The notes under the pieces: generated by a model
The model's database searches: none
Told to the model about the DNA's origin: nothing
What the model saw: only the letters and a program-made list of their open reading frames with translations
Translations under genes and position numbers: made by a program
IMG/VR virus record: IMGVR_UViG_2778261167_000005
Span: 1 to 29,475 of that record
Source: a virus
Taxonomy: Duplodnaviria > Heunggongvirae > Uroviricota > Caudoviricetes
Direction: 5' to 3' (one strand)
Length of the DNA: 29,475 nt
Shown here: in pieces, positions 3,980-15,566 of the stretch
Position numbering within the stretch: the stretch's first letter is position 1
How the letters are laid out: every line of letters begins with the position of its first letter

Positions 3980-6913
3980 TTATGCCTGAGTACGCAGCGC
4001 TTCAAGGCGGCGCAGGTCGAAGTCGTTCAGTTCGTCGGTGTAGTCTTCGGTTATCGGTGCAGACCAGCAATCGGTGTCATACGCATTTGCGAGTGCACGC
4101 ATGGTGCGCTGATACTCCAGCAGCCCGAGGTCGAGCAAATCTTCCGATGCCTCAATTACCGCCACCCAGTGGTAGCCCTCGTCTTTGTTGACGAAGATCC
4201 AGAAGAACTGATCAAAGTCGGCAACGGAGCAATACATGCCAGCGCTGAGGTGGTAGTCGCGGTCGATGATTTCCCGGTGCAGTTTGGCGCGCAAACCGTC
4301 TTGCTTAACGCGTCCCATGCTGATCGTCTTCAGGTCAACACCGATACGAACGCCGTTGATTTGAACCTCAAGGTCAGGGCGCACACGGACTTCCAGACCG
4401 GTTTCGTCGTCCATCCCGAAATAACTTGTTTCCACTGAACGGGAAGGATGGCGCAGCAGTTTCCCGGCTGATTCATGATTCAGTAGGGCTTGCTGAATTG
4501 CCGTGGCCAGCGTCAGTTGTTCTCTGGACAGGATGGTTTTCCCATCAACGCTATCGCGCCATTGCTGCTCAAATTCATCAGCGAAAATGGCCTCCGGGCT
4601 GACCGCGCGTATCGCCGCCTGAAGTTCTTCTTTCTTACCGGTGAGCTTCAGTTGCTCGGCCTTTGGCTTATCCGCGTTAAATTCTCGAATGAACGCCTTC
4701 ATGGAGTCGGTGGTGGTAAACGCCTCAGCCGGAATACCTGGGAATACCGCAAACTCTTCGTGGAGCTTTTCGGGCTCCAGGGCCAGGGTGTGCGCCAGGC
4801 TACCGAACGTCAGCGCCTCGCTGCTTTCGCGACGGATAGTCTTGGTCACGTGACGGCCGTGATAGAACATCAGGCTGACACGTGCGTCTTTCACCTGGGT
4901 TGAGCTGATACCGTTCGCTGCGTGATAAACCTCGTTCGGCAGACCTTCATAGCGGCCAGGTTCGAAGTAAGCAGGGTACACAACACCCGGTTCGTCAGAT
5001 TGAGCTTCTGGCTCGGTTTGGGCCGCAACCGGTTCGGTTTGGTTTACAGAATCGCTGTTTTGGCTAACAGAATCCGCATTCTGGCTCACATCGGCTTGCT
5101 GGCCGGTATGTGACTCTTCACCAGTTTCCAGACTGCTTTCGCCTGACTGCACTTCATCACCAGCCTGTTCTTCATCACTGACAGTTTCTTCCATCTGCAC
5201 ATTGCTGGTGGTTTCCTCATTAAGTGGTGAACGGTTATCTGTTTGGGTTTGTTGATCGCCCATCAGGCCATCAATGGAGAATACGCCGTTGCCCATGTTG
5301 GCGATTTGTGGCTGTTTAGCAGCTGTTTTCTGCTCTGCAGCGACCTGCTCATTAACCTCATTTTCCCAGCTGACGTCCGGCGCATGACCAGCATCAGCCA
5401 GCGTTTCTTCTGAGGGGTTTGAGTGGTCATTTTCGGTTAGATTGGCATTGATATATGCCCGCAACCGCCCAGGAAAGTTAACCAATTCTGATGATGTGCC
5501 GCGGATGAGTGCAAAGATGGCGGCGCGTGAATAGTCCAGGATGCCAGCGGTTTTGCGCAGCGCCTCAGACCATTCGCTGAACGGACTTTCTTTCTTGCTG
5601 ACAATCTCTTTAGCGCGACGGTAGACCCCACCAGGTATGTCGTAGATATTGAAATCCATTGGCAAGGTGGCCAGCGCAATTTCAACATCCAAAGTGTCCA
5701 GTGTGTGGACATAGTCGGTATTACGATCGGTCTTATTTCCACCGCCAGCATTGGTTTTGACGTCAGTACGTTGAATCTGCGCAATGCGGTTACCTTTCTG
5801 CCATTCCTTGACCAGCAGGCCACGGTCGATGTAATCAGTGTTGAACCACACAGTCAGGAACTGGATAACTGTTGCCAGCTCCGGTTTTTTACCGTCGACA
5901 GGGAAGACTTTCTTAACAGCATTCACGACTTTATGAATATCGTGCTCAATGGCTTTTTTGAATGCTTCCACATTCTCAGCAGCCAGCAGCAGGTTCTGGA
6001 TGTACGTGTCATCAGTGTCCATCTCAAGGCGGACAATCTCGTTTTTCTGCCCAGCGTCGATGTGATAGAGATATTCACCATCACCGATGAACTGAGCCAG
6101 TACGCGCTGACGGAATGGCAGGGTGGCTACGACGATCAGGTTCGGCTGATCTGGCTGCTGAGATTGTTCTTCGGGACCGACTTCATCACCAACGCTGGTG
6201 GTTTCAGTTTTGAGCAGAGGAAACCTTCCACTGCGCCAGTCTTCAACCAGTTGATTGCGATCACCTGCTTCTGCGTTCACCCAGTCAGACATGAAAGCAG
6301 CGATCACTTCAGGTCCATGCTCTTCACCCTGTTCGAAGATGTCTTTAATCGCCTGAATCATTTTCCACTCAGCATTAAGACTGAGTTCGCCAACTTCAGG
6401 AACATCATTTTTAACCTGCAGCAAGTTCTGGAGATAGGTATTGCTTTCGGCCAGTGACATTTCGCTGGCAGCCAGCTGCTGCTCTTTAGTGACGTGAGTC
6501 TGGTACTTATCGCTCATCAGATGGAAGGCAAAACGGACTGCTGGAGTGCGGTTTTCTAACGATACATTCTCGTCAGAAGTCGCTACTTCATCGGTATTTT
6601 TTACATCGGCAGGGATAGTGGTGACAACGTCGCCAGCGGCCTTTGGCAGCCAGGTGCGCCCGTCGTCCTGTAGTTCGTAACGATCACACCAGGTGAAATC
6701 AACTTCACCTTCTTCCGGCAGGTCATCAACAACAGGAAAATCTGTGCGAATTGGTTTAGCGTAGTCCTTGCCACGACCGGTCTCGATACCTGCATCTTCC
6801 AGCGCAACGTCCAGCATCAGGTTGGCGCGAGCCTCAGTTTTTGCAGTGAACCAGATAAAAGCATCAGGCTTTCCCGACTTTTGTGTGGCTTTAACTACAT
6901 ATGGAAATTCCAT
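3980..6913 (-). CDS. recE: Exodeoxyribonuclease VIII (RecE-like 5'-3' dsDNA exonuclease, PD-(D/E)XK C-terminal domain)
   Basis: 977-aa ORF; C-terminal region (...YFEPGRYEGLPNEVYHAANGISSTQVKD..., ...RPDLEV...DLKT...) resembles the RecE nuclease domain; long acidic low-complexity linker; paired with recT. Confidence 0.7.
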   Translation of the reverse strand: MEFPYVVKATQKSGKPDAFIWFTAKTEARANLMLDVALEDAGIETGRGKDYAKPIRTDFPVVDDLPEEGEVDFTWCDRYELQDDGRTWLPKAAGDVVTTIPADVKNTDEVATSDENVSLENRTPAVRFAFHLMSDKYQTHVTKEQQLAASEMSLAESNTYLQNLLQVKNDVPEVGELSLNAEWKMIQAIKDIFEQGEEHGPEVIAAFMSDWVNAEAGDRNQLVEDWRSGRFPLLKTETTSVGDEVGPEEQSQQPDQPNLIVVATLPFRQRVLAQFIGDGEYLYHIDAGQKNEIVRLEMDTDDTYIQNLLLAAENVEAFKKAIEHDIHKVVNAVKKVFPVDGKKPELATVIQFLTVWFNTDYIDRGLLVKEWQKGNRIAQIQRTDVKTNAGGGNKTDRNTDYVHTLDTLDVEIALATLPMDFNIYDIPGGVYRRAKEIVSKKESPFSEWSEALRKTAGILDYSRAAIFALIRGTSSELVNFPGRLRAYINANLTENDHSNPSEETLADAGHAPDVSWENEVNEQVAAEQKTAAKQPQIANMGNGVFSIDGLMGDQQTQTDNRSPLNEETTSNVQMEETVSDEEQAGDEVQSGESSLETGEESHTGQQADVSQNADSVSQNSDSVNQTEPVAAQTEPEAQSDEPGVVYPAYFEPGRYEGLPNEVYHAANGISSTQVKDARVSLMFYHGRHVTKTIRRESSEALTFGSLAHTLALEPEKLHEEFAVFPGIPAEAFTTTDSMKAFIREFNADKPKAEQLKLTGKKEELQAAIRAVSPEAIFADEFEQQWRDSVDGKTILSREQLTLATAIQQALLNHESAGKLLRHPSRSVETSYFGMDDETGLEVRVRPDLEVQINGVRIGVDLKTISMGRVKQDGLRAKLHREIIDRDYHLSAGMYCSVADFDQFFWIFVNKDEGYHWVAVIEASEDLLDLGLLEYQRTMRALANAYDTDCWSAPITEDYTDELNDFDLRRLEALRTQA

Positions 6914-9135: not shown

Positions 9136-9519
9136 TCAATCCCCCTGCGATCTGATCCGCCCCTTCATGTACTTCTCATACAACTCATCCAACTCTTTCA
9201 GGCGAATGGCAAAGATGCGGAGCATGTTCTGTTGCTCTTCTTCCGGTAGTTGGCGGTAGAGCTCCAGCAGACGCTGTTCGTCCGGCTTGAGGCCGTCTTT
9301 CTCATCGACATCCTCACCGAGTAACCAAGGTACCGAAACGCCAGCTGCATCAGCGATGGCCAGTGCAGATTGTTTGCTAATCCTTCCTGTTTTGAACCAG
9401 CTGGATACAGCTTGCTTACTGACACCAGCAATCTTGGCCATCTCCGTTTTGGAGAAGCCTTTATTGTTCAGTTCTGTGAGTCTCGAAATAAGACCGTCTG
9501 TCAATGTGTTTTCACTCAT
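9136..9519 (-). CDS. Prophage repressor, HTH XRE-family (RacR/CI-like, no peptidase domain)
   Basis: 127 aa from ATG 9519; HTH segment KTEMAKIAGVSKQAVSSWFK; divergent from the Cro-like gene; operators in the 97-bp intergenic region. Confidence 0.75.
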   Translation of the reverse strand: MSENTLTDGLISRLTELNNKGFSKTEMAKIAGVSKQAVSSWFKTGRISKQSALAIADAAGVSVPWLLGEDVDEKDGLKPDEQRLLELYRQLPEEEQQNMLRIFAIRLKELDELYEKYMKGRIRSQGD

Positions 9520-9616
9520 CTCATGATTGTAAATGATTGCTTTACTCTCTGATAGGGATGTATTGTTTGACACGTCAGTAAAACAATGCTTTACTTCCTT
9601 CATCTAAGGAGGTCCC
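9520..9616. promoter_or_regulatory. Immunity switch region: PR promoter plus two operators (O1 9577..9595, O2 9528..9546) and a candidate PRM
   Basis: PR: TTGACA 9567..9572, 17-bp spacer, TTTACT 9590..9595, AGGAGG RBS 9607..9612. O1 AGTAAAacaatgcTTTACT; O2 TGTAAAtgattgcTTTACT. Minus-strand TACAAT lies immediately before the repressor ATG. Confidence 0.65.
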
Positions 9617-9826
9617 ATGACTGGTATTGAAAATGCAATTCTCCGATCTGGCTCGGCCAGCGCGCTTGGCGCTTTGATCGGCGTTTCAAAAATGGCTGTT
9701 TCGCTGTGGCGCCGTAAAGGAATTCCTGCCGAACGAGTGCTACCAGTGTTTGAGGCAACCGGCGTAACGCCCCACGAACTGCGCCCAGATCTCTACCCAA
9801 ATCCCACTGACGGTTTACCAAAGTAG
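9617..9826 (+). CDS. Cro-like HTH regulator (YdaS-like)
   Basis: 69 aa, strong AAGGAGG RBS; HTH LGALIGVSKMAVSLWRRKG; first gene of the rightward operon, divergent from the repressor. Confidence 0.7.
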   Translation: MTGIENAILRSGSASALGALIGVSKMAVSLWRRKGIPAERVLPVFEATGVTPHELRPDLYPNPTDGLPK

Positions 9827-9837
9827 GAGCACTAACC

Positions 9838-10377
9838 ATGCAGACACTTACTTATCAGAATGATAGCGACATTACTCAAGGGGTAATGATAAATCGCGCT
9901 CAAGCGCGCAGGGGGCCGAGCCATGAAGATATTCGTGACGCGGTTCGCTCCTGGGCTGGCGCCGATGGCCAGGACGTAGTCACGGCTCTGATCATCGAAG
10001 AGTACCTGGCGCAAGGAGGTGATGAGATCACTTTTCCTGATGATCTCTGCCGAAAACGCCAGAAGCTGTTCCGCTTTCTGGACAACCACTTCAACAGTGA
10101 ACGGTACCGCGAGAACGTTCGCCAGCTGACTCCGGCAATCCTCGCAGTTCTGCCGATTGAATACCGCAACCGTCTGCTGCCAGAAGACAACATCATGGCT
10201 CGCCTGGCACGTATGGAGAAGGAAACCAGCGAAGCGAAGATAGCTGTCGCAATGGATGCGCCGCGTCATCAGAAGCTGAAAGAGCTGAGTGAAGGGATCG
10301 TGGAGATGTACCGCGTTGACCCTGGCTTAACCGGGCCGCTGATGGAAATGGTGCAGATGATGCTGGGGGTTGTATGA
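9838..10377 (+). CDS. YdaT-like protein (Rac YdaT family)
   Basis: 179 aa; conserved-looking segments EEYLAQGGDE and LTPAILAVLP recall E. coli YdaT; sits immediately after the Cro/YdaS-like gene as in Rac. Confidence 0.55.
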   Translation: MQTLTYQNDSDITQGVMINRAQARRGPSHEDIRDAVRSWAGADGQDVVTALIIEEYLAQGGDEITFPDDLCRKRQKLFRFLDNHFNSERYRENVRQLTPAILAVLPIEYRNRLLPEDNIMARLARMEKETSEAKIAVAMDAPRHQKLKELSEGIVEMYRVDPGLTGPLMEMVQMMLGVV

Positions 10378-10541
10378 CGGGTTCAAAAATGGCGAAAGCC
10401 GTGGTGCTCGAACACCAACGGCCTTCAGGTGCAAATGTAGAGACAAATGCAAAATCAGTATGCCCACACAATCATATTTTTACCAGTGGAAGTTCTGTTC
10501 ACTGGAACGATCTCATCGCTTTCATTTATCAGGAGGACGCA

Positions 10542-11381
10542 ATGGCCGGTGACTGGATAAAAATGCGCGCCGAGCTGCATACGCATCCGAAAATTGTCCG
10601 CATGTCGTCCGCTTTGAAAGCGGACAGATTGCGCGTTGTTGGTGGACTACATTCCGCATGGTGTCTTTTTGATGTCCATTCTACCGATGGTTTTCTTCAC
10701 GGATACACACCGGAAACTCTCGACGATTTAATCGGCTTCCCTGGCTTTGCGCGAGCAATGATTGCTGTCGGATGGCTGGAAGAAGAGGGTGAAAACCTAG
10801 TAATGCCGCGGTTTGATGTGCACAACGGACAGTCCGCCAAGCGTCGAGCACAGGATGCAGACAGGAAGAAAAAATCCCGCAAAATGTCCGCTTGTGATGC
10901 GGACAAAAAGGGGACCAGAGAAGAGAAGAGAAGAGAAGATATAAAAGATCAAAACCCAGAGAGAGAACGCGCGGGAGAAAACTCTTCCGTGGAAGTCATT
11001 TCTGGCAATGGAACTTCATCACCAACCATTCAACATCAACCGGCCGCTGAAGATTTCGGTGCTGGATGCGCGTTCGGTCCACTTGGCAAATTTCCAATCA
11101 CTGACTCCTGGGCTCCATCTCCTGATTTCGTTCGTCAGGCTGCACTCTGGGGAAAAAACGTCGGTGCAGAACCGGGTTACACCGCTGAAGAACTCCAGCA
11201 GTTCCGTGATTACTGGATCCCTGATGGCAAAGTTAAACACCAGTTGGCCTGGGAACAGACGTTTGCTGACAGCCTGTTGCAATCGCGTAGTCGAATCAAA
11301 AGGGCAAACTCTGCGGGATCGCGAGATGTGAACCGCATTTCTGAGCCAGATAAAACCATCCCAACCGGATTCAGGGGGTAA
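10542..11381 (+). CDS. Phage replication initiation protein (replisome organizer N-terminus, DnaT-like C-terminal domain)
   Basis: ATG 10542 with AGGAGG RBS; alternative upstream start 10374 overlaps the ydaT-like stop (ATGA). C-terminal ...FRDYWIPDGKVKHQLAWEQTFADSLL... is DnaT-like; internal palindromic repeats. Confidence 0.6.
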   Translation: MAGDWIKMRAELHTHPKIVRMSSALKADRLRVVGGLHSAWCLFDVHSTDGFLHGYTPETLDDLIGFPGFARAMIAVGWLEEEGENLVMPRFDVHNGQSAKRRAQDADRKKKSRKMSACDADKKGTREEKRREDIKDQNPERERAGENSSVEVISGNGTSSPTIQHQPAAEDFGAGCAFGPLGKFPITDSWAPSPDFVRQAALWGKNVGAEPGYTAEELQQFRDYWIPDGKVKHQLAWEQTFADSLLQSRSRIKRANSAGSRDVNRISEPDKTIPTGFRG

Positions 11382-11383
11382 GC

Positions 11384-11722
11384 ATGCCAAGACCAAATAC
11401 ACCAGAAGAGCAGGCGGCACTTATCCGGGTGATCATCGAAGAGGTGAAAATCCGTGGACGCTTAACCGTTAGCGAAGCATCACAGATGTTGTCGCTGCAT
11501 CGTCAGACTGCTGAGAAGTATTTCCGCGTAGCAGCCGAACGCGGCGAACTCATTCGTCACGGTCGTCTTGGATTGTTCAGGGACCGGAAGGCTGTGATTG
11601 ATTTTGATCTTCAGCGTTTTTCATACAGCTCGAGTAAGTCTGCGATTGAATTACCAGCCGATTTTCGGGGAAGCGCGGTTATGCGCCGGGTTATAGATAT
11701 CTTAGGGAGAATGCCAGCATGA
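11384..11722 (+). CDS. Hypothetical protein with predicted HTH
   Basis: 112 aa, AGGGGG RBS; segment LTVSEASQMLSLHRQTAEKYF is HTH-like. Confidence 0.5.
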   Translation: MPRPNTPEEQAALIRVIIEEVKIRGRLTVSEASQMLSLHRQTAEKYFRVAAERGELIRHGRLGLFRDRKAVIDFDLQRFSYSSSKSAIELPADFRGSAVMRRVIDILGRMPA

Positions 11723-13381: not shown

Positions 13382-13685
13382 ATGTGGACACCGAAAGAGA
13401 GCGAGCAAAGGATTATAAACGTAGTGATGGGGTGATTAAAACGCGTTGAACTGGCTGTTTTGAAATGGACTTTTAAACTTTGACTAAGGTCATTAAATCA
13501 TCGCGATTTGAAGTTTAAGCGAAAATAGTTGATGAGGGGTATTGACCTTTAGTGCTCGCCGGTGACAAGCCAACTCAGGAAGAGATTAATGATGCTGTAA
13601 GGGACGCGCGAATTACCCATCCGTGGAAATTCGCCTGGCATTGATTGATGTATAATCCCTCTCAATGTATCGAGGGGGATTATAC

Positions 13686-13943
13686 ATGTCGGACTGGAAC
13701 ATCGCAGCAAAATCGAAAGAAGAGCAGGACAAGGTTAACGTCGACCTTGCTGCCTCCGGAGTTGCGTACAAAGAGCGTCTGAACATGCCAGTTATCGCCG
13801 AGCAGGTATCCCGTGAGCAGCCAGAGCACTTACGCGAATACTTCATGGAGCGCGTTCGCTACTACCGCGAGCAAAGCCTGACGCTTCCAAAAGCATCCGA
13901 TCCGCGCTATCTGGATATGGCAGCCCAGAACGAGAAGAAGTAA
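13686..13943 (+). CDS. Small hypothetical protein (possibly the cold-shock-induced YnaE/YdfK family of Rac/Qin; uncertain)
   Basis: 85 aa, ATG 13686 with GAGGGGG RBS; preceded by a palindrome overlapping a TATAAT box. Confidence 0.45.
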
Positions 13944-14197
13944 TGGGATGTCTCATTGTTGGCGGCGTCAAGTTTTACACTCTGGCAGAAGGTGAGTCGT
14001 ATCCGGATCCGCATGCCGATAACCGGTATGTCGGTGCGTATGCCGTATTCCCATTCGAGGGAAAGTGGGTCGCTCAGAAGTATTTCAGGGGAGGGCACTG
14101 GAGAGATATCACCGAGCGCCGGTTCAACACCGAAAACGAGGCTTTCAACTTCACCTACGAATACGCGTTTCTCCCGGAAAACCGCTACAAATATTAG
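13943..14197 (+). CDS. Hypothetical small protein
   Basis: 84 aa; start overlaps the upstream stop (TAATG). Confidence 0.5.
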   Translation: MGCLIVGGVKFYTLAEGESYPDPHADNRYVGAYAVFPFEGKWVAQKYFRGGHWRDITERRFNTENEAFNFTYEYAFLPENRYKY

Positions 14198-14691
14198 TCG
14201 ATCGATAATACCGATCGATTTGATTAAATTGATCTATGAAATCGATTATCAAATAAGCACAGCGCAGCAACAAATTACCAACCTGACTTTCCTCGCCACG
14301 AGTGAAATATGTCCCCTGACGACATCGACACCTTTGTCATTTACCTGACGAGAGCATTCCAATCAGATATTTACAATCGACAGTTTTGACGTAGCCATCT
14401 GTTAAAAATAACGATCAATTTTTGCGCGAAAGTAGCAATAAAATTTATCTAAATCAATCGGATAAATGACCTTGCGCAAACAGGCCTTTCATGTGCATAC
14501 TTAAGCAAAACAGACAAATACTGTTTATATGTACAGTTGTTTTGGAGTATAGTTAAGATGTTGCAGTAAATAGTTTTATTTTTCTTCCAGCCAACCTATT
14601 AGGAAATTCGTGCCATTTGGTATGTTGGTTCAGTGAACGGGATTATCCCGGCTGGAAGAGTGAAATTTGTTGATAGCAAAGAGGGGGTTTT

Positions 14692-14931
14692 GTGAAGGAA
14701 AGTCAGGAGCAAGGCGATTGGTACGACATTATCAGGCGTTCTGATGGAAAGCTTATGGCCTCAATGCCACTGGATCGTCAGTATCTCGTCTATAGCAGAA
14801 ATGGCCTGGTATCATGCCGTCCATTACTGGAGGATGAAGGGGTCTTCAACCTTTCATCTGGGACTCGTTTTCTTCGCCGACTTGGCTACCGCATCACCCA
14901 ACCCTCTGATATCATAATATCAACGGATTGA
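14692..14931 (+). CDS. Hypothetical small protein (GTG start)
   Basis: 79 aa; GAGGGGG 5 nt upstream of GTG 14692. Confidence 0.45.
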   Translation: MKESQEQGDWYDIIRRSDGKLMASMPLDRQYLVYSRNGLVSCRPLLEDEGVFNLSSGTRFLRRLGYRITQPSDIIISTD

Positions 14932-14966
14932 GCACCCGTTAACCTGATGCGCCACGGAGAGAAACC

Positions 14967-15566
14967 ATGGCGCACGAACTACAACTAATCAAGCAGTCTT
15001 CAGGAATCCTGATCCCCGCTACGCCGGAGACCAGTGATTTACTGCAATCAAAATTCAAACTCGGCGCCGTGCTGGTGGCCGAGTTCCGGCAGGTACGCAA
15101 TCCTGCCTTTCACCGTCGCTTCTTCGCGTTACTCAATCTCGGTTTCGAATACTGGGAACCCACCGGCGGGGCGATCTCATCCAACGAGCGCAAACTGGTA
15201 ACCGGCTACGCCAAATTTCTTGCCTCATTCGCGGGAAGCGAAGCCGCGCTCCTGGATGCTGCCGAACAATATCTCGACCGTATCGCCGATAAGCGAGCCG
15301 GTAGCATCAGCATCTGCAAATCCTATGACGCATACCGTGCGTGGGTGATCGTCGAGTCTGGCCACTACGACGCTATCCAGCTTCCTGACGGAACCCTTCG
15401 CAAACATCCCCGCAGTATTGCTTTTGCCAATATGGACGAAGCTGAGTTCCAGCAGCTGTACAAAGCCGCGTTGGATGTCCTCTGGCGCTGGATATTGTCC
15501 TGCACGTTCCGCACGCAGCAGGAGGCCGAGAACGCCGCCGCCCAACTGATGAGCTTCGGGGGATGA
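14967..15566 (+). CDS. Phage protein, probably DUF1367 family (nin region)
   Basis: 199 aa, GGAGA RBS; family recalled from lambdoid prophage annotations, not verified. Confidence 0.5.
   Translation: MAHELQLIKQSSGILIPATPETSDLLQSKFKLGAVLVAEFRQVRNPAFHRRFFALLNLGFEYWEPTGGAISSNERKLVTGYAKFLASFAGSEAALLDAAEQYLDRIADKRAGSISICKSYDAYRAWVIVESGHYDAIQLPDGTLRKHPRSIAFANMDEAEFQQLYKAALDVLWRWILSCTFRTQQEAENAAAQLMSFGG

Follow-up and report, generated by a model that had tools for sequence, protein, structure and literature searches.

What does a 490-bp stretch of DNA do when it lies between two prophage genes and holds no convincing ORF of its own? The question is raised by the gap between an 84-aa gene and a 79-aa ORF in the nin region of a viral sequence of 29,475 nt (the whole stretch analyzed, hereafter the window), in which a preliminary description had suggested either a promoter/regulatory hub or a structured RNA. 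On the strength of sequence comparison, we consider it probable (about 0.8) that this DNA controls an SOS-inducible antirepressor gene which belongs to the GfoA/GftA family and is carried by a Gifsy-like lambdoid prophage. The type of switch is known, and what is new is the absence of dinI, the structured leader and the conserved upstream module.

Prophage setting and content of the gap

The window is a lambdoid, Gifsy-like prophage adjoining the chromosomal SraC/RyeA-SdsR sRNA locus. The 361-aa ORF beside that locus (681-1766, - strand) is probably the prophage integrase and, since the genes for SraC/RyeA and SdsR/RyeB lie next to it, the prophage appears to be inserted there; Rfam matches at 463-607 correspond to full-length SraC/RyeA (- strand) and SdsR/RyeB (+ strand) sRNA genes. 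Beyond the immunity region (Table 1), a probable replication gene (10374-11381) is assigned by its position, a replication gene being found at the equivalent place in locus L001 of Escherichia coli, and by analogy with the same locus the ORF at 17043-17867 would occupy the position of antiterminator Q; lysis and head genes are also present. The 79-aa ORF is followed in order by a DUF1367 gene, small ORFs and NinG. Two further observations concern the surroundings of the gap. The theta (HolE/HOT-like) gene is also found at the equivalent place in phage SEN34 and in Klebsiella phage ST974-OXA48phi18.2, and a match to isrI, an Hfq-binding sRNA of Salmonella islands, was obtained at 18157-18253 on the + strand (57.6 bits vs. 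a gathering score of 45), about 290 nt past the Q-position ORF, where a late-promoter leader RNA is expected.

Table 1. Elements of the window referred to in the text (positions are counted from its first nucleotide).
Feature	Position	Strand	Remarks
Prophage repressor	9136-9603	-	155 aa, immunity region
Cro/YdaS-like gene	9617-9826		Immunity region
YdaT/cII-like gene	9838-10377		Immunity region
DNA polymerase III theta (HolE/HOT-like) homologue	13665-13943	+	Precedes the 84-aa gene, two genes upstream of the putative antirepressor gene
Upstream gene, phrog_17759	13943-14197	+	84 aa; its TAG stop (14195-14197) marks the left edge of the module
First palindrome, TCGATCG-ATAATAC-CGATCGA (TCGATCG-N7-CGATCGA)	14198-14218	+	First conserved element of the module
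Second palindrome, ATTGAT-CTATGAA-ATCGAT (ATTGAT-N7-ATCGAT)	14228-14246	+	6-7-6 layout, nearly invariant
Conserved block GCAACAAATTACCAACCTGAC	14267-14287	+	Alignment
Hypervariable segment	14288-14360	+	Alignment; nearly constant length
AT-rich conserved block AATCAGATATTTAC	14361-14374	+	Alignment
AT-rich conserved block TGTTAAAAATAACGATCA	14400-14417	+	Alignment
Candidate promoter P1	14472-14477 (-35), 14496-14501 (-10)	+	TTGCGC, variable 18-nt spacer, CATACT
LexA box TACTGTTTATATGTACAGTT	14519-14538	+	17/20 positions of the consensus TACTGTATATATATACAGTA
Candidate promoter P2	14524-14553	+	-35 TTTATA inside the LexA box, 18-nt spacer, -10 TATAGT at 14548-14553
Leader helix, 5' arm TCTTCCAGCC	14583-14592	+	Inverted repeat, fold, covariation
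Inner hairpin CGGGA-TTA-TCCCG	14638-14650	+	Abuts the 3' arm; only in the clade of the window
Leader helix, 3' arm GGCTGGAAGA	14650-14659	+	Inverted repeat, fold, covariation
Shine-Dalgarno AGAGGGGG	14680-14687	+	4 nt ahead of the GTG; left unpaired by the predicted fold
Putative antirepressor gene, GfoA/GftA family	14692-14931	+	79 aa, GTG start
DUF1367 gene	14967-15566	+	Pfam DUF1367, E=5e-91; next in the presumed operon

The gap had been described as AT-rich and free of convincing ORFs, and both statements hold. Its GC content is 0.36-0.43 vs. 0.52-0.61 in the flanking genes, and only four ORFs of at least 30 aa touch 14198-14691: one, of 130 aa and out of frame (13956-14348), reaches in with its tail, and the other three, of 37-40 aa, are on the minus strand. 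None of the four is conserved, since homologous loci are hypervariable in the middle of the region. These minus-strand ORFs and a 26-aa + strand ORF (14310-14390), which lie in the hypervariable segment and show no conservation, were discarded as genes. The suggested Rfam scan returned no match at the gathering thresholds within 13900-15000; in the search of the whole window at gathering thresholds and of 13900-15000 at E<=10, the best sub-threshold hit was IS102 (26.9 bits vs. 46), its score being driven by the CGATCG hairpin. A hok/sok-like locus, considered for the presence of hokD upstream of rem in the Qin prophage, was likewise rejected, with no Rfam match and no Hok-like ORF. The 494-bp gap found no blastn match among 50,697 phage records and a single one among 5,426 E. 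coli genomes.

A LexA box in front of a small gene

The most informative feature of the region, absent from the preliminary description, is the LexA (SOS) box at 14519-14538, located 173 nt ahead of the start codon (GTG) of the 79-aa ORF. Its CTGT and ACAG motifs are both preserved around an AT-rich spacer, and the consensus that it approaches is that of E. coli-type LexA operators. The idea of a promoter/regulatory hub was thus right in kind, given a conserved LexA operator, promoter-like hexamers and a conserved small gene behind them, but it had been formulated with neither the box nor the antirepressor gene recognized. The chance expectation for CTGT-N8-ACAG is 0.38 per window. A second copy, CTGTTTTGGCTAACAG, was met at 5055-5070 (+), inside a 977-aa minus-strand ORF (3980-6913), and its spacer is not AT-rich, so the match is probably due to chance.

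A LexA box was found upstream of the homologue in all 13 loci that had been retrieved without regard to the box (twelve genomic loci collected via the protein alone and one E. coli locus via DNA), at a distance of 139-416 nt, and where this distance reaches about 330-415 nt a dinI gene sits between box and homologue. The box is also present in five annotated phages (mEp237, SEN34, Gifsy-2, PHB10, and ST974-OXA48phi18.2). Judged from this sequence conservation, host LexA would bind the box at 14519-14538. A minus-strand promoter or gene under control of the same box was considered and rejected, as neither a leftward ORF nor hexamers are conserved.

Two promoters are candidates for LexA control. 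Across 73 distinct sequences the TTG of the P1 -35 element is kept in 73, 73, and 67 cases, respectively, and A2 and T6 of its -10 element in 72 each, with a spacer that varies in sequence and is fixed in length, the classic pattern of conserved hexamers; P1 is retained even where the -10 of P2 has been lost. With P1, the LexA box would fall at about +11 to +30, i.e., downstream of the start. P2 is the sole sigma-70-like site on the + strand in a consensus scan (9/12 matches), and its -10 (TATGGT/TATAGT) is kept in most loci, not in all. Both candidates are weak, with 7-9 of 12 matches and 18-nt spacers, and both layouts are compatible with LexA repression; the choice of promoter is ambiguous, and the start of transcription is one that we infer.

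The 79-aa protein, its presumed target and its neighbor

The GTG at 14692 is the first start codon after an in-frame TAG (14674) and is used in nearly all homologues. Seventy of these, 67-97% identical to the window protein and mostly of exactly 79 aa, were collected from Enterobacter, Leclercia, Kosakonia and relatives, all of them annotated as hypothetical. The window protein belongs to phrog_340 (E=2e-7), as does gp55 of Salmonella phage SEN34, with which it shares 51% identity over 94% of its length. The link to GfoA runs through primer matches: counting the annealing parts, the published gfoA primers (PMC3121763) match SEN34 gene 55 at 17/17 positions at the 5' end (pp866) and 20/22 at the 3' end (pp867). 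Both gftA primers of the same study match Gifsy-2 exactly, at 11468 and 11659, so that STM1020.1n (11464-11685, GTG start) is GftA.

No direct similarity was detected by BLASTP between the window protein and GftA, nor any significant one with E. coli Rem, and no relative was found among solved structures. The gap to GftA is bridged by a 71-aa protein encoded behind the same promoter-leader module in other contigs, which matches both GftA (E=5e-12) and the window protein (E=2e-8) and supports a homology between the two, transitive and drawn from sequence. The PHROG families of the window protein and of GftA show a weak cross-match, and hhalign aligned the window family with the GftA family at P=5e-4 over 48 columns, with a probability of only 31%. 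Taken from this homology, the 79-aa protein would act as an antirepressor.

The presumed target of the 79-aa antirepressor is the DicA/GtgR-like repressor of the immunity region. It carries only the Pfam domains HTH_3 and Phage_CI_repr and lacks the S24 peptidase domain responsible for autocleavage; it matches the NCBIfam DicA model over its full length (E=3e-11, below the curated cut-off), and is 29% identical to E. coli DicA (E=1e-12) and 25% identical to the Gifsy-2 repressor (E=6e-7), with which it shares the C-terminal motif LL.L..QLPE.E. None of the window proteins scanned proved to be a repressor equipped with a peptidase domain. Non-cleavable repressors of the DicA/GtgR type have been shown to be inactivated by antirepressors (PMC3121763; PMC10448788).

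The DUF1367 gene follows the antirepressor gene in mEp237, SEN34, and Gifsy-2 as well, and in mEp237 its annotation notes a similarity to Gifsy-2 STM1020. As STM1020 comes directly after gftA in Gifsy-2, and gftA has been placed between dinI and irsA (PMC3121763), the DUF1367 gene would be an irsA homologue, an assignment derived from gene order and similarity.

The promoter could also be LexA-controlled and the 79-aa product, instead of being an antirepressor, be an SOS-induced accessory protein with a different role, the prophage itself being induced by other means. The function is taken from homology of at most 51% to a characterized protein, the small proteins of the family diverge fast, and the characterized relative Rem shows no direct similarity, all of which leaves room for this explanation. 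It is nonetheless quite unlikely in view of the position of the gene, which is that of gfoA/gftA, its GTG start, the DicA-type non-cleavable repressor accompanied by no peptidase-domain repressor among the scanned proteins, and the exchange of the module between loci along with different alleles of the family.

A conserved module upstream of the box

The whole 490-bp gap is a conserved module, with 67-98% identity in more than 50 loci. In a BLAST search with 13943-14540 against the upstream regions of the loci added by the leader-motif scan described next, homology started at 14199/14200 in almost every locus, two bases past the stop codon of the 84-aa gene, and the genes upstream of the module vary from locus to locus. 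At least 66 loci were added by scanning viral contigs with the leader motif and filtering for a nearby LexA box, so that in these 66 the box and the motif were themselves selection criteria. The 16-nt pattern AACCTATTWGGAAATT is too short for such a purpose by itself, as it gives mostly chance matches, and hits were filtered by a LexA box within 120 nt; a single metagenome scan with it yielded 2 true loci among the matches listed.

The order of elements in the module is palindromes, GCAACAAATTACCAACCTGAC, hypervariable segment, AATCAGATATTTAC, TGTTAAAAATAACGATCA, AAATCAAT, TTGCG, 18-nt spacer, GTGCATACTTAAGC, and LexA box. The cluster of ATCGAT-type palindromes noticed at the beginning of the gap was confirmed, with three copies within 46 nt (14201, 14214, and 14241), and across the whole 29.5-kb window 14 copies were observed vs. 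7.8 expected. Lacking a T-run on the + strand, the first palindrome does not qualify as a canonical terminator; the second is a candidate operator pair or RNA hairpin. The distance from the second palindrome to the LexA box is 286-293 nt in 61 of the 62 loci with enough sequence, a count from a second scan in which this palindrome served as query and which includes loci L259-L299. This spacing is held despite the hypervariability of the intervening sequence.

In many related loci the hypervariable segment contains hairpins followed by TTTTCT, which resemble terminators, and no clear terminator was found in that of the window. The block AATCAGATATTTAC is a candidate match to the loose IHF core (WATCARNNNNTTR); by-eye comparison with the Fur, Cra, DnaA, and IHF motifs gave this loose IHF-core fit only, at 14361-14373.

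Short inverted repeats arise readily in AT-rich intergenic DNA, and 22 were listed in this region, hence one could see in the gap nothing but a non-functional spacer at a mosaic joint whose repeats are fortuitous. Since the 490 bp are conserved across over 50 loci, homology sets in abruptly at 14200, some blocks are invariant, spacing is fixed, and the LexA box and helix are kept, such an explanation is hardly credible, and chance is excluded because of the conservation.

The only one of the 5,426 E. coli genomes to carry the module is GZ2408P (NZ_CM172482.1; L001, 6001-6690), where a 480-bp gap is 97.7% identical to that of the window and is followed, from about window position 14681, by a different GTG-initiated ORF of 64 aa (MSIEVAEAIDTVKEGGKF...). 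The comparison reveals a clean mosaic joint at the ribosome-binding site. The same type of ORF recurs in L053, L261, and L274. Altogether the module precedes at least four types of small protein, the position of the GTG being fixed, and therefore the control region moves as a cassette and the antirepressor allele varies. Such allele swapping behind a fixed module is expected if the antirepressor must match the repressor of each phage.

A predicted structured mRNA leader

The outer inverted repeat reported in the preliminary description is perfect over 10/10 positions, TCTTCCAGCC pairing with GGCTGGAAGA across 57 nt, and the inner elements it mentioned are also present, CGGGA-TTA-TCCCG at 14638-14650 and CCAAC/GTTGG at 14591-14595 and 14624-14628. 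In the minimum free energy fold of 14555-14700 the two outer arms are paired and the helix extends on both sides; the fold has z = -2.2, with 7/200 shuffles as stable, so the thermodynamic signal alone is weak. The proposed folding and covariance check showed the outer helix to be kept across 30 diverse homologues, for which RNAalifold returned the same 11-bp helix. Pairing is possible in 93% of cells, compared with 45-66% in controls that shift the 3' partner by 1-3 columns, and compensatory changes occur in five of the 11 pairs, e.g., from G-C to A-U at a position that marks the clade of the window. None of 500 shuffles reached the observed covariation, in a comparison whose controls remove the effect of relatedness only in part.

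The outer helix persists in leader variants with a wholly different loop sequence, one leader variant has a different AT-rich long-range helix instead, and the fold of the variant leaders has z of about 0. An unrelated leader sequence was observed behind the same upstream module and LexA box in L259, L262, L263, L265, and L275, with a long AT-rich inverted repeat (GGAATTTATTTATTT / AAATGAATAAATTTC) at the relative position of the helix.

The inner elements fared differently. The predicted fold uses the CGGGA hairpin, not CCAAC/GTTGG, and at the site of this hairpin other clades have different small hairpins or none; as a conserved structure, the pair CCAAC/GTTGG and CGGGA/TCCCG is unsupported outside the clade of the window. 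The notion of a structured RNA hence stands for the outer helix, conserved in the predicted 5' untranslated leader of the mRNA, but not for inner hairpins that are clade-specific, nor for an RNA with an Rfam family or an unusually stable fold.

On comparative grounds, we conclude that selection has maintained the outer helix in the predicted mRNA leader. The helix may, for instance, set an expression threshold, serve in processing by RNase III or in attenuation, or occupy a CU-rich anti-Shine-Dalgarno stretch.

A free-standing sRNA may also be envisaged, either one with 14267-14287 as seed, followed by variable hairpins and a terminator, or a leader released as an SOS-induced sRNA. Conserved blocks do flank a hypervariable segment of constant length, hairpins followed by TTTTCT occur there in many related loci, and for most relatives, the window excepted, an alternative local hairpin involving the 3' arm, with GGTATTTGGT behind it, obtains a terminator-like score; moreover, an sRNA could coexist with the antirepressor control region. 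Yet no Rfam family matches at threshold, no convincing promoter was found upstream of 14267, the variable segment of the window is without a terminator, and the fold of 14198-14400 is ordinary (z=-1.3), which makes this possibility unlikely for the window; it may apply to those relatives that do have terminator-like hairpins. The nested repeat region would be part of a structured mRNA leader, not a free-standing RNA gene.

A LexA-controlled small hydrophobic peptide encoded in the leader, acting as leader peptide or as type I toxin, would be suggested by the largest clade, whose leader holds a hydrophobic ORF of 37 aa (MNFSSGEPIRKFAPFVILALWSGVLPAGRGYLVIAK) ending at the ribosome-binding site of the antirepressor gene. 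However, just 26 of the 60 distinct leaders combine an ATG with at least 30 open codons, what is conserved is the nucleotide sequence, in which indels break the frame, and no Shine-Dalgarno precedes the ATG, so that such a peptide is very improbable; for the window, which offers 20 open codons and no ATG, it was rejected, the ORF being absent from it and from most clades. In the leaders where the ORF MNFSSGEPIRKFAPFVILALWSGVLPAGRGYLVIAK does occur (L002, L020, L025, and others) it overlaps the leader helix.

Comparison with known antirepressor switches

The Salmonella prophages Gifsy-1, -2, and -3 have, past their replication genes, a LexA box that governs dinI, gfoA/gftA/gfhA, and irsA, and the antirepressor is a small, GUG-initiated protein that inactivates a short non-cleavable repressor, the start codon of gftA being GTG (PMC3121763). 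The window shares with them a LexA box placed after the replication genes, within the nin region, a small, GTG-initiated and homologous putative antirepressor with DUF1367 next to it, and a short, HTH-only, non-cleavable repressor of the DicA/RacR/GtgR class. The order [LexA box]-X-DUF1367-small ORF-NinG-Q is the one found in Gifsy-2 and relatives.

Unlike the Gifsy prophages, the window has no dinI and no ORF at all between the box and the GTG, and its box is instead followed by a predicted untranslated leader of about 130-185 nt, structured and conserved. The dinI gene is present in the relatives L006, L007, and L010-L012, in mEp237, SEN34, and PHB10, and in Klebsiella phage ST974-OXA48phi18.2. 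The promoter layout is different too, as the -10 element of Gifsy and mEp237, TATACT, overlaps the LexA box, in contrast to the window. The promoter of the window is in addition preceded by about 320 bp of conserved non-coding sequence that includes the paired ATCGAT palindromes; Gifsy-2 has two canonical terminators there, whereas the window has the hairpin 14198-14218 lacking a T-run on the + strand. In the dinI-containing relatives Gifsy-2 and mEp237 the spacer between dinI and the antirepressor gene (L016 11353-11463 and L014 2357-2473) was seen to contain a GCGC...GCGCGC hairpin followed by ATTTTTC, which may be an internal attenuator.

Rem, encoded by the cryptic prophage Qin of E. coli K-12, is an antirepressor that inactivates DicA, and its inducing signal was stated as unknown (PMC10448788). 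Directly behind rem comes a DUF1367 gene (ydfU), and the Rem protein targets a DicA-type repressor, as would be the case here; in K-12, however, rem has no LexA box upstream, unlike the gene of the window. Tum of coliphage 186 and AntC of phage N15 are LexA-controlled antirepressors, Tum having 146 aa and being fused to a DinI-like half, and published alignments do not group Tum/AntC with GfoA/GftA/FsoA (PMC3121763). The likeness to these systems, taken here from their description, is that LexA represses the antirepressor and not the phage repressor itself, but they belong to P2-like and N15-like phages and to other gene contexts.

Proposed mechanism

In a lysogen, host LexA bound at 14519-14538 would block a weak sigma-70 promoter, either the overlapping P2 or P1 just upstream. 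Upon DNA damage, active RecA would lead to LexA self-cleavage and the promoter would fire, giving a transcript with an untranslated leader of about 130-185 nt, in which 14583-14592 would be paired with 14650-14659, followed by the coding sequence of the 79-aa protein and probably by the DUF1367 gene too. The small protein would then bind the non-cleavable repressor and strip it from its operators, resulting in prophage induction. The leader helix probably tunes expression post-transcriptionally, and the weak GTG start may help to hold basal antirepressor synthesis low, these being the least secure steps.

A second, LexA-independent layer of control, made up of the paired ATCGAT-N7-ATCGAT palindromes and the covarying leader helix, may be proposed only tentatively and seems to us rather doubtful. 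The helix could then serve as a riboregulator (e.g., RNase III site, attenuator, or anti-Shine-Dalgarno mask) and the palindromes as operators for a further factor; if true, prophage induction would need more than LexA cleavage.

Implications

The antirepressor control region proposed here probably explains how the prophage is wired to the SOS response despite a repressor unable to cleave itself, and the same wiring is probable for its relatives, which form a large group represented in genomes of Enterobacter, Leclercia, Kosakonia, Silvania, and Atlantibacter as well as in many viral contigs. The Gifsy-type antirepressor switch would thus also exist in a form free of dinI and provided with a conserved structured leader. 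Candidates for extra control over induction thresholds are the conserved helix and the palindromes upstream. Finally, the promoter-leader unit is exchanged among phages as the antirepressor allele varies, which bears on the cross-induction of prophages residing in the same host.
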